Shown here piece after piece: positions 7,746 to 13,742 of a DNA stretch of 29,054 nucleotides (positions within the stretch are counted from its first letter, which is position 1; the number at the start of each line of letters is the position of its first letter). The notes below the pieces were generated by a model that was not told where the DNA came from, ran no database searches, and worked only from the letters and a program-made list of their open reading frames with translations. Made by a program: the position numbers and the translations under genes. The DNA comes from Promethearchaeota archaeon Loki_b32 (GTDB lineage Archaea; Asgardarchaeota; Lokiarchaeia; Sigyniarchaeales; SOKP01): the NCBI GenBank assembly GCA_005223125.1, contig NJBH01000042.1:1-29054 (forward strand), given 5' to 3'.

Positions 7746-8666
7746 ATGACTGATAATAATTTTATTCAAGATTATATTAAAGCTGGAAAGGGTGTGATTG
7801 CTGCCAAAAAATTGGCAAGGAAATTAACCAAGCCAGGAACATTATTTTTGGAAATTGCAAATAGGTGCGAAGCTGAAATTATTAAAAATGGGTGTGGTTT
7901 TTCTTTCCCGATTAATATGTCTTTAAATGAAATTGCAGCTCATTATAGCCCTCCTATTGACGATCAAACTATAGTACCAGAAAAGGGATTATTAAAAATC
8001 GATATAGGAGCACACTATAATGGATATATAGCAGATTCTGCATTTACCATTAATATAGATGAAGATCCTAAGCTTCAGAATTATATTGAGGCAGCAAAAG
8101 AAGGTCTTGAAGCTGCAATTCAATTATTTACCCCTGGAGTTAAATTATATGAACTTGGAGAAGTTATTGCTCAAAAGATAATAAATCGAGGATTACGACC
8201 AATAACAAACCTAGGTGGTCATGAATTAAAACAATATAATTTACACGCAGGTCCCTTCATCCCAAATTATAAAGAAAAAATGCATAATCAAGTTTTAAAG
8301 CCTGGAGATGCCTATGCATGTGAACCTTTTGCAACTTCTGGAATAGGCAAAGTTGAAAATGGAAGAGATGCTTATATTTTTCGATTTGTAAAAAGAATAA
8401 AGAAAAATATGTCATATGAGCATCTAGCTTATATGAATAAAATTGAGAAAAACTTCAAACACCTTCCATTTTCCCCAAGATGGATAGAAAATAATAATTT
8501 AATATCTAAAAATAAAATACAGAGAACTCTTGAAACTTTCATAGGAAAAAAAATTTTAGATAAATACTCCATATTACTAGAAAAAACAAGAGAACCTGTT
8601 GCTCAAGAAGAGCACACAATAATTTTGGATTTGGAAGGGAATAAGATTGTCACTACTAGAGAATAA
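7746..8666 (+). CDS. map: Methionine aminopeptidase type II
   Basis: FPINMSLNEIAAHYSP, KIDIGAHYNGYIADSAFT, NLGGH, LHAG, EPFAT and AQEEHT. Confidence 0.97.
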   Translation: MTDNNFIQDYIKAGKGVIAAKKLARKLTKPGTLFLEIANRCEAEIIKNGCGFSFPINMSLNEIAAHYSPPIDDQTIVPEKGLLKIDIGAHYNGYIADSAFTINIDEDPKLQNYIEAAKEGLEAAIQLFTPGVKLYELGEVIAQKIINRGLRPITNLGGHELKQYNLHAGPFIPNYKEKMHNQVLKPGDAYACEPFATSGIGKVENGRDAYIFRFVKRIKKNMSYEHLAYMNKIEKNFKHLPFSPRWIENNNLISKNKIQRTLETFIGKKILDKYSILLEKTREPVAQEEHTIILDLEGNKIVTTRE

Positions 8667-9525
8667 GCTTAAAAAAAAATTAACTATTGTTATTTTATGT
8701 GCTGGGGAGGGAAAAAGACTTAAAAAATTAACGAGATATACTCCCAAACCTTTATTGAAAATTAAATTATTAGAGAATGAATCAATTCTCCAAAACACTA
8801 TTTTTAAATTAATAAATTTAGGAATTAAACAGATAGCAATTATAATTGGGCACTTAGGAGATAAAATTCAAGAGTTTATTTCGTACCTAGTAAAGAATAA
8901 TGAATCTTTACTGAAAAACTTAGAAATAATTAATTCTGAAAGTCAATATAAATTAGGTCCATTGCATTCCTTCTTATCTATAACCAAAAATAATACTATT
9001 TTCAATCATAACAATTACTATATTTTAATTCCAGGAGATACAATCTTTGATTTAAACCTATTAGAGGAAATTCTGTTCATAATCATGAATAATTTTGAAT
9101 TATTGCAGAAATATCCATTTGTTTTTTATCGAAATATTGAATCAATAAGATTAAATGATACTTATGACAAAAAAAAGTTAATCTCTAATGCTGAACTTGA
9201 CAAAACTGGTTCAGAAATTGTGTTAAAAAGGATTTCACAATTAAAAATGAAAAATATTCATTCTAAAGCTATAGTTCACCAAATTATACCGATTTTTGCT
9301 TTAAATTATGATTTCATCAACAATATCCTAAATTTAAAGAATGAAATTCCAGCAATTACAATTTGGGAAACATTGAATTATATGATTTCTAAAAGAAGGA
9401 AAGTAGTTGCTTTCAATATTGAAAATAAATACCAATTTTTTGATATTGATGAAAAATATGATCTCAAAAAATTAAAAAAAAAAGAAAAGGACAATAGATG
9501 CCCCGATTATTCAATGAATAATTAA
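8647..9525 (+). CDS. Sugar-phosphate nucleotidyltransferase (NTP_transferase family)
   Basis: VILCAGEGKRL...PKPLL N-terminal signature, PGD and FFDID. TTG start overlaps map by 20 nt; the C-terminal codons run into the 3' end of the putative ncRNA. Confidence 0.85.
   Translation: MSLLENKLKKKLTIVILCAGEGKRLKKLTRYTPKPLLKIKLLENESILQNTIFKLINLGIKQIAIIIGHLGDKIQEFISYLVKNNESLLKNLEIINSESQYKLGPLHSFLSITKNNTIFNHNNYYILIPGDTIFDLNLLEEILFIIMNNFELLQKYPFVFYRNIESIRLNDTYDKKKLISNAELDKTGSEIVLKRISQLKMKNIHSKAIVHQIIPIFALNYDFINNILNLKNEIPAITIWETLNYMISKRRKVVAFNIENKYQFFDIDEKYDLKKLKKKEKDNRCPDYSMNN
9474..9483 (-). terminator. Oligo-U terminator of the putative ncRNA
   Basis: A10 run on + (U10 on -) abuts the terminal helix; oligo-T tracts are established archaeal intrinsic terminators. 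Confidence 0.5.
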
Positions 9526-9874
9526 TTCAGAGGAAATATCCACTAGTAATCCAATGAAGCAATTGGGTAATCAAAGCTCCTATTAGTTTATTTATATTTG
9601 TTTTATTGGTATAATGTTTTAAAGTCTCTTGTATCCATAAAAACCTAAATATAATCAACAAGAACTCAATCTTCTTATTTGTGTCATATACCAATATCGG
9701 AATATAGTTAAAAAATTACCGCTCCAAAGTGCTGATTTATATTTTTCTTTTAAATCTGTGATATATACATTCTATGCACTACAGGAACAAATGAATTGTA
9801 AATATGATTTCGTATGGAATCGAACAAAAAATATAACTTCTTGGTAAAAAATCTCAGTATAATGTGTCCTTTTC
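9484..9874 (-). ncRNA. Putative ~390-nt structured non-coding RNA of unknown family
   Basis: No ORF of meaningful length. Ends pair (GAAAAGGACA 9484-9493 / TGTCCTTTTC 9865-9874), with nested perfect 10-bp helices (9604-9613/9687-9696 and 9737-9746/9827-9836). Minus-strand TATA at -31..-24 and U10 directly after the terminal helix. Confidence 0.6.
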
Positions 9875-9897
9875 AAATAGATATATGACAATTTGAC

Positions 9898-9912
9898 TAT
9901 TTAAATCTTGTT
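9898..9912 (-). promoter_or_regulatory. BRE + TATA box for the putative ncRNA
   Basis: Minus strand AACAAGA-TTTAAATA (TATA = 9905..9898) ends 23 nt before the G at 9874, which is canonical archaeal spacing. The AT-rich background lowers specificity. Confidence 0.55.
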
Positions 9913-10006
9913 ATTAAACAAATCCTCAGAATTTTCGACATAAATAATATGATATTAAAAGATTTTAAAATAATATAAATATCAGAAATTACATTATTTA
10001 TAAAAT

Positions 10007-10381
10007 ATGAGTGTACCAATAAAGATTAATTTATTCGGAATTGGGATTATTGAAGGTGAAATTATCCGTTATATCGCCCCTCTTACTGCAGATGCGATAC
10101 TTGATAAATTACCTATTGTTTTAAGAGGTAGATTTAGTTTTGGTTCAAAGAAATATTGGACTTTACCTGGTATAGAAATATATAAAGGAGCTAATTCTAA
10201 ATCAAAGGCTACAGTAGAAAAAGGTGACATTCTATACAATCCTAAAACTGATGAGCTGATAATAACTTTGGAGAATTTAGAAATGCCAAATAAAGTAAAT
10301 AAAGTTGGGAAGGTTGATACTAACCTTGACATATTATTACAGGCAAAAAATGGATTAAATACAAAAATAATTAAAAAATAG
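10007..10381 (+). CDS. Cyclophilin-like fold protein (TM1367/DUF369-like)
   Basis: APLTADAILDKLPI, VEKGDILY.P and VNKVGKV patterns; 124 aa. Confidence 0.75.
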   Translation: MSVPIKINLFGIGIIEGEIIRYIAPLTADAILDKLPIVLRGRFSFGSKKYWTLPGIEIYKGANSKSKATVEKGDILYNPKTDELIITLENLEMPNKVNKVGKVDTNLDILLQAKNGLNTKIIKK

Positions 10382-11475: not shown

Positions 11476-11793
11476 TTATGTCATTGATTTGGTTTGAAGC
11501 GTAATTTCGATTTTAGAAATTCTGTCGATTTTTTTCTTATTATCTTTACGGTAGTTTCCATGTTGTCTTCTATTAAAGTAAGGACGGCTTCCTAAAGAAA
11601 CATTTGAAATTTCTATTCTAGGATACATGCGATTTTTTAAAATTTCAGCGACTTCTACGGCAGTACTGATTTCTTGCCCTTCACCCTTTATTAACAGTGA
11701 TTTCCTACCTCCAGAAAATGCAAAAATTGCGTCTTTAATTGACTTATCTTTATCATCTCTGTTTCTTATAATAATTGTAGTTTCATTAACCAT
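11476..11793 (-). CDS. Alba-family nucleic-acid-binding protein (divergent)
   Basis: LLIKGEGQEISTAVEVAEILKNR and ISKIEITL match the Alba '[21 protein letters not shown]...VSTIEIVL' pattern. Confidence 0.88.
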   Translation of the reverse strand: MVNETTIIIRNRDDKDKSIKDAIFAFSGGRKSLLIKGEGQEISTAVEVAEILKNRMYPRIEISNVSLGSRPYFNRRQHGNYRKDNKKKIDRISKIEITLQTKSMT

Positions 11794-11958
11794 GAATGAT
11801 AGAACCTCATTCGCAATAGAAATTTTATAATTTATTAAAAAGAAGCTAACTTAATTCTTAATAATTCATTATTAATAATAAATTTTACTAAAGTTCTTAA
11901 TTTGTTAATATTTTTTTATATTTTTAAAGTTTGATAAATACAAAATAAAATACATATG

Positions 11959-13080
11959 CTAATTTATTATCAAATTTAATTCTGAACGCTCATTTAATTC
12001 ATCTAAGATCGTGCAATATTCAGAGCTTCTCTCTTCTAAATATTCAATAACCTTTCTTTCATTAGTGTCTAAATTATCGTAGAAAGGAAAGATTTTTTCA
12101 ATTCTATTAGAGAGATCATTCATTAGTTTATCATACCATTCATTAGGTGTTTTTAACATATTTTGTATTTTTTTTTTTAGTTTCTCTTTTCTCTTTTCAA
12201 ATTGTTCTTTATCGTTTTTTTCACTTAGTTGGTCCAATTCGTCATAAGCCGCTCCAATAGTATTTTCTATTTTTTCTCTAAATTTAGGAATACGATATGA
12301 TTTTTTAAAGAAATCCGGGTCCCATACATACAGATGAAGGTCATCTGCCAATTCTTCATCATCAGTTACGATAATCTCTTTTTTAGGAACCAAAATTAAT
12401 CCATAATTTCTTTGTAATTGAGCTAAAGCCTTTTTACGCAGTACTTCCTTAATATATTCAATTTCCTTGATGACTTTCTCTATGTTTTTATTTACATTTT
12501 TTATTACTTTTTCAACTTTCTCTACCATTTCCTCTTTTTCAAATTCATAATTCAATTCTATTAAGTTATATGCAGAGGAAATCCCTAATTCTGGATCTTT
12601 TAATCTCAAGCCAGCCACTCCCAAAAAATGCGAATCAGATTTCTTTTCACAATGATCAAAAATTAGGCCTACTGCATAGGGATTCGGGATTTGATATCCT
12701 AATTGTGTCATACAATCGATTGGACTATAGAAAAAACCAAAACCAGGATGTGTGTGAAACCAGCCTATAATAAAATCTGTTTTGTCATCTTGAATAGATC
12801 TTTCAAACACAGTTGCGTCAATTTGAGCCATATCGACATATTGTTTGTTTTCATATTTTACACCGGCTCTATCTCCAACTACCATTGGAATTGCATCTTT
12901 TACAATAACCTTAGATTTGTTTTCTATAGAACCAATTAAAATTCCATATACCTCACGCCACTTATCAGAATTTATATCATCACTAGCATATCGTATTGCA
13001 TAACCTACAATTCTTTTGTAAGCTTTTTGAGTCAATAGTACAGGTGTTTTAAATGGATCAAGTTTTTTATTTTTCTTCAT
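11959..13080 (-). CDS. JAB1/MPN+ (JAMM) metalloprotease, Rpn11/CSN5-like, with helical C-terminal extension
   Basis: EVYGILIG ... GWFHTHPGFGFFYSPIDCMTQ gives a complete E-xn-HxH-x7-S-x2-D JAMM motif. Confidence 0.92.
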   Translation of the reverse strand: MKKNKKLDPFKTPVLLTQKAYKRIVGYAIRYASDDINSDKWREVYGILIGSIENKSKVIVKDAIPMVVGDRAGVKYENKQYVDMAQIDATVFERSIQDDKTDFIIGWFHTHPGFGFFYSPIDCMTQLGYQIPNPYAVGLIFDHCEKKSDSHFLGVAGLRLKDPELGISSAYNLIELNYEFEKEEMVEKVEKVIKNVNKNIEKVIKEIEYIKEVLRKKALAQLQRNYGLILVPKKEIIVTDDEELADDLHLYVWDPDFFKKSYRIPKFREKIENTIGAAYDELDQLSEKNDKEQFEKRKEKLKKKIQNMLKTPNEWYDKLMNDLSNRIEKIFPFYDNLDTNERKVIEYLEERSSEYCTILDELNERSELNLIIN

Positions 13081-13199
13081 AACTTTAGCATTTTTTTGCT
13101 TTGTTATGTTATTCTTTAAAAGTTTTATATCTTATTCTATATAGAATTTAAACAAAGTCTAAATATTTAAATTATATTCAATGAAATTTTCCTTTAAAT

Positions 13200-13742
13200 A
13201 TGAAAGTATTAACAATTGTAGGTTATCCAGGTTCGGGTAAAACAACCGCTATAGAATCAATAGAAGATTTAGGTGTCGTTGTATCAATGGGTGATGTTGT
13301 TCGAAATGAAGCTAAAAAAAGGAATTTAGAACCTTCTGGGGCCACAATCGGTAATATAGCAAAGGAATTGCGTGAAAAAGGGGGACCTGCTATAATAGCT
13401 GAGAAATGCGTGGAGTTAATAAAAGAAGTAAATTCTAAAATTATTTTTGTTGATGGAGTTAGATCTCTCTTTGAAGTTAACATATTTAGGAGATTTTGGA
13501 AATTTCCCATTATAGCTATTATTGTAGATGAGGAACAAAGATTTAATCGCCTTTTTGAAAGAGGACGTAGAGATGATCCTAAAAGCTTTGAAGATTTAAA
13601 AGAAAGAGATAAAAGAGAAATTGAATTTGGACTGGATAAAGTGTTAGAAAATGCGGACTACACAATCAAGAATAATTCTACAATTGAAGATTTAAAGAGA
13701 AAAACAAGAAAAATGGTCATAGATATTATTAATAATTACTAG
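13200..13742 (+). CDS. Archaeal dephospho-CoA kinase-like P-loop kinase (UPF0200/COG0237)
   Basis: GYPGSGKT, VSMGDVVR, VDGVRS and RGRRDD...RDKREIEFGL. Confidence 0.88.
   Translation: MKVLTIVGYPGSGKTTAIESIEDLGVVVSMGDVVRNEAKKRNLEPSGATIGNIAKELREKGGPAIIAEKCVELIKEVNSKIIFVDGVRSLFEVNIFRRFWKFPIIAIIVDEEQRFNRLFERGRRDDPKSFEDLKERDKREIEFGLDKVLENADYTIKNNSTIEDLKRKTRKMVIDIINNY

Follow-up and report, generated by a model that had tools for sequence, protein, structure and literature searches.

The window (i.e., the whole 29,054-nucleotide [nt] stretch of DNA analyzed here) derives from a Lokiarchaeia genome of 4.13 Mb (30% G+C content) and carries, on its plus strand, the end of an aspS-map-ntp gene run followed by a cyclophilin-like gene. 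The last gene of the run encodes an NTP transferase (ntp; positions 8647 to 9525), and the cyclophilin-like gene (positions 10007 to 10381) begins after an ORF-free gap (positions 9526 to 10006). On the minus strand, positions 9874 to 9484 constitute the gene of a noncoding RNA (ncRNA) that measures 391 nt from its first to its last paired base, as delimited with homologs and with contigs from RNA libraries. The ncRNA gene is convergent to ntp and divergent from the cyclophilin-like gene, which lies outside the ncRNA and serves as a synteny marker. It is preceded by a BRE and TATA box promoter (AATAACAAGA-TTTAAATA; positions 9915 to 9898), identified from the sequence and its conservation in homologs, and is followed by a U10 terminator tract (positions 9483 to 9474). 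The TATA box (TTTAAATA; positions 9905 to 9898) lies at -31 to -24 relative to G9874, and transcription probably starts at about positions 9875 to 9880. Both elements had been reported in an earlier note on this DNA and were confirmed when we checked the sequence. The BRE-TATA element has the same spacing in 97 homologs and in all 13 genera of the family, and a U-tract also follows the terminal helix (P1) in homologs.

The earlier note had placed the RNA wholly within the ORF-free gap. All of its helices exist where it located them, but the 3' end lies inside the NTP-transferase ORF, the final 14 codons of which overlap the ncRNA. Since this ORF ends at position 9525, the last 42 nt of the ncRNA and the U-tract are antisense to coding sequence; this segment includes the 3' strand of P1, a hairpin at positions 9506 to 9522, and the U-tract itself. 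Close full-length relatives of the NTP transferase are found only in the same family (E values of 1e-15 or weaker in other families), and a search for related loci with the NTP-transferase protein gave no matches. Beyond the cyclophilin-like gene, positions 11476 to 13742 encode Alba, a JAB/MPN protease-like protein, and a small nucleotide-kinase-like protein, with no apparent link to the ncRNA.

Homologs of the ncRNA were detected by BLAST in 23 of the 24 members of the genus, and a covariance model built on the 3' domain of the ncRNA (R1) was positive for 92 of 131 genomes of the family, usually with one copy each. When the R1 hits are combined with those from a promoter-plus-5' pattern and from synteny (ntp and cyclophilin-like neighbors), the ncRNA is placed in about 119 of 134 genomes of one Lokiarchaeia family, once each and in all 13 genera, a few of these assignments being based on the 5' motif alone. 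Of the 97 full-length copies, 92 adjoin both the ntp and cyclophilin-like genes, and the others adjoin one of the two; homologs range from 343 to 632 nt, and their ends are fixed. The named records that contain the ncRNA are mainly Promethearchaeota/Lokiarchaeia assemblies, including SOKP01, Loki_b31, AMARA, and TEKIR. Copies of the g14 type also occur in records titled Odinarchaeota, Hermodarchaeota, and Nanopelagicaceae, and these titles look wrong.

Outside the family, R1 was negative for all 19 genomes from other families of the order and for all 125 other-family genomes drawn from the phylum, while the promoter-plus-5' pattern occurred in 3 of 26 other genomes of the class, all of them atypical and chance-like. 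Twenty pattern matches outside the family lay mostly within ORFs, and none of them had the full closing strand. Since R1 is too narrow and missed eight genera inside the family, these negatives carry little weight for a diverged homolog. Within the family, g12 has lost the ntp gene and retains the ncRNA, with map directly facing it, and g17 retains the ncRNA with the cyclophilin-like gene 9 kb distant. The g17 copies are short (about 360 nt), while those of g13 are the longest (622 to 632 nt) and contain a repeated CAGAGAA...UUCUCUG hairpin module, together with a 10-bp helix between CAUUGG (a family motif beside P1) and the 3' end.

Folding of the present copy was only modestly better than that of shuffled sequences (z = -1.8 for the minus strand and -2.4 for the plus strand), although minus-strand z values were negative in 23 of 23 homologs tested. 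Since single-sequence folding was weak evidence, we turned to comparative evidence, which is clearest for P1. Its 5' strand (GAAAAGGACA; positions 9874 to 9865, minus strand) reads GGACAAUAG in most relatives, and its 3' strand (positions 9497 to 9484) contains the 9-mer CUAUUGUCC (positions 9497 to 9489). The helix between positions 9484 to 9493 and 9865 to 9874, which the earlier note had proposed as the terminal helix, was borne out against 83 homologs. Positions 1 to 9 of P1 are 100% paired (81 to 95 homologs contributed to each position), and both strands have changed at positions 1, 2, 4, and 10, with at least five double changes at position 10 by parsimony and C-G, U-G, U-A, or G-C at position 4, depending on the lineage. 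When P1 is read on the minus strand, G-U pairs outnumber A-C combinations by 18 to 2, and the BRE-TATA element before the ncRNA and the U-tract after it agree with this strand. An all-pairs covariation test with a tree-based null yielded no significant pair (the best was P1 position 10; E value of about 0.9). The interior helices therefore rest on conserved pairing rather than on proven covariation. RNAalifold recovered only arm C (see below) from the full alignment because the 5' ends were misaligned.

The inverted repeat formed by the two strands of P1 is also what a miniature inverted-repeat transposable element (MITE), or another mobile element with 10-bp terminal repeats, would present. 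We regard this alternative, which the earlier note had raised, as refuted by copy number and synteny: the host genome contains a single copy, the element occupies the same locus across the family, none was found in viral contigs, and its repeats tolerate G-U pairs on one strand.

The 9-mer CUAUUGUCC is invariant, yet the overlapping ORF reads it in all three frames or ends before it, so protein coding cannot account for its conservation. No conserved small ORF was found in the ncRNA homologs. The stop codon of the NTP-transferase gene is overlapped by 9 to 43 nt in 21 of 23 genus members, with the frame being random and the overlap absent in some copies. We conclude that the C-terminal tail of the enzyme is fortuitous, its length and frame depending on how far the gene happens to run into the antisense RNA. 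An alternative reading is that the RNA regulates the aspS-map-(ntp) operon opposite it in cis by antisense action or helps to form the 3' end of its transcripts. Wherever the 3' end of the ncRNA was located, the genus in question has ntp or map convergent to it, and the stop codon overlap is frequent. However, the overlap is missing in some copies and random in frame, the conserved arms far from it would be unneeded for antisense action, and the same aspS-map-ntp end in one sister-family genome is present without such an RNA. We therefore consider a cis-antisense function quite unlikely.

From its 5' end, the ncRNA appears to consist of the terminal helix, a 5' domain, and three arms (A, B, and C), an architecture that largely replaces the two-domain fold of the earlier note, in which the conserved arms A and C had been missed. 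In most relatives, the initial GGACAAUAG is followed by CAUUGG, which is kept in 102 of 106 homologs; the motif or the 5' domain is lost in five genus members. The copy in the present genome is a reduced variant, in which AAUAG and CAUUGG have both been lost and the 5' domain is reduced, so that positions 9864 to 9857 hold a degenerate form (CAUUAUAC) of the motif. A short hairpin with a U-rich loop follows (positions 9840 to 9822); its stem was assigned by inspection of homologs, in which the U run is conserved and the stem sequence is variable.

Arm A (positions 9788 to 9721) is formed by the helices GUUCC/GGAGC and AGUGC/GCACU around an internal loop, which are paired in 76% and 80% of cases, respectively, among 83 homologs (slid controls, 10 to 58%). 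Arm C (positions 9584 to 9493) is the best-conserved domain and comprises AAUAGG/UCUAUU, GCUUUGAUU/AAUCGGGGC, AAUUG/UAAUU, UUCA/UGAA, and GGA/UCC. Ninety-four percent of its cells are paired (slid controls, 32 to 54%), with values of 69 to 92% in 83 homologs; it is mostly invariant, and changes on both sides occur in 2 of 27 pairs. Arm C also contains an internal look-alike of the P1 5' strand, with which the 3' strand pairs in the present genome. In 71 of 97 copies from the family, a better-than-shuffled local partner is available to the 3' strand in addition to its 5' partner.

Arm B (positions 9696 to 9604) has a lower helix (positions 9696 to 9687 with 9613 to 9604) and a tip helix (positions 9667 to 9658 with 9632 to 9624), in which GAGAC is nearly invariant; its tip is truncated or unalignable in deep genera. 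The inner helix of the earlier note (positions 9663 to 9658 with 9632 to 9627) survived the comparison (71% paired in 83 homologs), and the hairpin at positions 9506 to 9522 did so in part (64% paired in the same set). The remaining interior elements of that fold were paired at or near the slid-control level (i.e., the closing helix of domain A, 39%; the 10-bp helix of positions 9836 to 9827 with 9746 to 9737, 44%; the closing helix of domain B, 53%; and four hairpins, 43 to 47%). The two closing helices, the 10-bp helix of domain A, and most of the hairpins are private to this copy. The 10-bp helix at the base of arm B was likewise near this level (44%), with the alignment being uncertain there, and the T-loop-like GUUCGAUUCC proved to be private to this copy and not conserved.

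The tip of arm B (positions 9657 to 9633) resembles a K-loop, with U.U, G.A, and A.G beside U-A and G-C. A K-turn or K-loop is recognized by a noncanonical stem next to which a G.A and an A.G pair stand in tandem (PMC5061560). G.A is the commonest pair at its position (53 of 84 copies), as is A.G (55 of 84), and both are present in only 33 of 84 copies, so that the motif can only be called a candidate. A K-loop-like tip that lies 8 to 11 bp above a large internal loop could suggest that the RNA gives rise to, or houses, an H/ACA or C/D modification guide centered on arm B. This reading is distinctly improbable: a conserved ACA box does not follow the lower stem, a second C/D pair is missing, the pocket strands are variable, and Rfam gives no match. 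An H/ACA guide RNA as such, which should have its ACA box 14 to 16 nt from the pocket and conserved guide strands, was rejected on the same ACA and pocket evidence.

Parts of the window were present in 10 RNA runs. Eleven contigs, from four runs of four studies, fall within positions 9539 to 9875, most of them at least 95% alike, while 3.6 kb of flanking genes matched only two contigs, each less than 90% alike. The runs had been selected for containing the stretch, the contigs carry no information on strand, ends, or level, and no contig falls at positions 9484 to 9538, where the comparison skipped a repeat, so that this gap counts neither for nor against transcription. DNA contamination is disfavored, since coverage of the flanking genes would then also be expected. 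One contig ends at position 9875, one base ahead of the first paired G, and several fold back on themselves, as we infer is often the case in cDNA of structured RNA. The ncRNA is apparently abundant. The central claim of the earlier note, namely, that of an undescribed large Asgard ncRNA that is transcribed from the minus strand and has a promoter and U-tract of its own, is thus upheld by its conservation, the compensatory changes in P1, the G-U asymmetry, and the RNA-library contigs. We hold with high confidence that this RNA is noncoding, is conserved at the RNA level, is encoded on the minus strand, is closed by P1, and is present in RNA libraries.

Searches against Rfam with this copy and 15 homologous loci gave no match at the gathering or E-value thresholds and returned chance hits only. 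Canonical RNase P RNA and SRP RNA were both found elsewhere in the host genome (RF00373 at 127 bits on another contig; RF01857 at 71.9 bits, only at positions 37341 to 37643 of contig C64). At 71.9 bits against an Rfam cutoff of 96.5, this SRP RNA would escape routine annotation. The ncRNA is not an SRP RNA, as RF01857 matches only C64 and the arm tips here are variable, in contrast to a helix 8 with its GNRA tip and SRP54 loops. The earlier note had also entertained a divergent RNase P/MRP-like RNA, and a paralog of this kind would share the size, end pairing, promoter, and U-tract of the ncRNA; GAGAC and UGAAAC moreover loosely resemble CR-II and CR-III. Yet the canonical RNA is encoded elsewhere, RF00373 does not match this copy or the 15 homologous loci even at an E value of 10, and neither CR-I nor CR-V is conserved in an alignment of 97 sequences. 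The conserved 3' strand leaves no space for P4 before P1, and GAGAC and UGAA are paired inside arms in the main genera. Look-alikes of the CR-II and CR-III T-loops, which in RNase P face each other at the base of P12, occur in g17 only. An RNase P/MRP paralog is therefore very improbable. Resemblances to U3 box A, U6 ACAGAGA, and 23S rRNA were dropped because the motifs concerned are either paired inside arms or not conserved.

Within the ncRNA itself, CAUUGG lacks a consistent pairing partner (mean z for a local partner, -0.4; pairing with the 3' end is clear only in g13). One alternative reading is that the ncRNA acts in trans by base pairing, with CAUUGG(U/A) beside P1 as the seed and with switching of the 3' strand exposing or hiding it. 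Retention of an unpaired motif in 102 of 106 copies would fit, as would the alternative local partner of the 3' strand in most copies. A search for targets of the conserved motifs, with a 16S rRNA that was only partly assembled and 15 tRNAs, found nothing above chance. The one 9/10 match in 16S rRNA is near chance and fits other genera better than the source genus, no targets were found in RNase P RNA, SRP RNA, or the detected mature tRNAs, and the complement is not enriched at start codons. Moreover, the motif is absent from the copy in this genome. We thus consider a trans-acting function unlikely. The rRNA genes of the host genome lie on separate contigs (16S pieces on C61 and C48; 23S on C68), and ARAGORN detected only 15 tRNAs in the whole genome. 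A different small structured RNA, whose copies have a U-rich block in common, occurs three times on contigs C49 and C64, and its pairing with the ncRNA was not consistent.

Another alternative reading involves tRNA, which the RNA might bind or mimic: UGG(U/A) might base pair with the NCCA of tRNA, an interaction like that of T-box antiterminators, and CAUUGGUUUA is reminiscent of a D-loop. UGGU is the widespread form and follows a 7- to 10-bp acceptor-like helix, and GCAGUGAC/GCAGUCAC and GGUUGGAAC in g17 resemble the elbow-binding (CR-II/CR-III) loops of RNase P. These g17 motifs are not, however, family-wide, a T-arm before the 3' strand and a CCA end are both missing, and ARAGORN was negative on 13 sources. 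As there is also no downstream gene on the same strand to control and no Rfam match, we judge a tRNA-related role improbable. A tmRNA or tRNA-like RNA was rejected on the ARAGORN result, the lack of a conserved ORF, and the nonconservation of GUUCGAUUCC, and a T-box or riboswitch leader was rejected because the downstream gene is convergent rather than on the same strand.

The ncRNA thus fits no known RNA family, which does not in itself demonstrate a new mechanism. The explanation that we favor, with moderate confidence, is that the gene stands alone, is present in single copy, and yields a stable ncRNA that is so far limited to one Lokiarchaeia family. Whether this RNA works as a protein-binding scaffold is about evenly balanced in our judgment; fixed ends combined with free arm lengths fit such a role. 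The BRE-TATA promoter would drive transcription, and the U-tract would end the transcript by aCPSF1-type termination, archaeal transcripts being known to end at U-tracts with aCPSF1 (PMC8716108). P1 would then seal the ends and, together with the adjacent CAUUGG, may provide the site at which a partner recognizes the RNA, as the sequence of both is kept beyond the needs of pairing. The interior arms, free in length, would carry docking modules; the K-loop-like tip of arm B is a candidate site for L7Ae, which structures archaeal ncRNAs via k-turns (PMC5539422), and the U-rich loops are candidate sites for Sm-like proteins. The host genome encodes both L7Ae-family and Sm-like proteins. The look-alike of the P1 5' strand that arm C contains could capture the 3' strand and may have done so in the lineage of this genome. 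A more speculative extension, to which we assign a low probability, is that the ncRNA lies at the heart of an undescribed ribonucleoprotein (RNP) machine of Asgard archaea, with L7Ae and Sm-like proteins assembling on one long scaffold and toggling of the 3' strand between the 5' end and arm C exposing CAUUGG. Such a combination of scaffold, L7Ae and Sm-like proteins, and toggling recognition sequence is otherwise that of eukaryotic small nuclear RNPs.

To our knowledge, few long housekeeping-type RNAs have been described in archaea beyond rRNA, SRP RNA, and RNase P RNA, and we know of no cultured member of the family that bears the ncRNA. In a literature search of incomplete coverage, we found no paper on a long housekeeping-type RNA in Asgard archaea. 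An RNA of 350 to 630 nt that occurs once per genome in 13 genera and is seen in RNA libraries from sediment suggests that an undescribed RNP exists in relatives of the ancestor of eukaryotes.

Several known systems share features with the ncRNA. Archaeal H/ACA and C/D guide RNAs have a K-loop-like motif at a hairpin tip, whereas the ncRNA is much longer and lacks an ACA box, a C/D plus C'/D' pair, and a conserved guide. Y RNAs likewise combine a sequence-conserved end stem and a subsequent U tail with a variable interior, but the ncRNA is 3 to 5 times longer, has no bulged C in its stem, and comes from a genome in which no Ro60/TROVE gene was found; we rejected the Y RNA assignment because P1 is unbroken and Ro60 (PF05731) was not found in the genome, which is 95.5% complete. 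The yeast telomerase RNA TLC1 is a flexible scaffold RNA. As an analogy of architecture, with no homology implied, both RNAs have ends that meet at a conserved base and arms that vary and may carry protein-binding modules; the ncRNA differs in that no template or pseudoknot was seen and no reverse transcriptase is linked to it. A retron msr-msd was also rejected, since the neighbors are ntp or map and the cyclophilin-like gene, with no reverse transcriptase. The archaeal SRP and RNase P RNAs resemble the ncRNA in their single copy, TATA promoter, U-tract, paired ends, and possible L7Ae site, but they are universal, while the ncRNA was detected in a single family and lacks their defining motifs. 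OLE, ROOL, GOLLD, and raiA are lineage-restricted, abundant bacterial RNAs of several hundred nucleotides that have their own promoter and terminator and were found by comparative genomics. The ncRNA differs from them in being archaeal and AT rich (26 to 31% G+C content), in its poorly conserved interior and variable length (343 to 632 nt), and in lacking an Rfam match and a linked partner gene. Although it belongs to none of these bacterial RNA families, it is closest to them in kind, with a similar size, its own promoter and terminator, and a lineage-restricted distribution.
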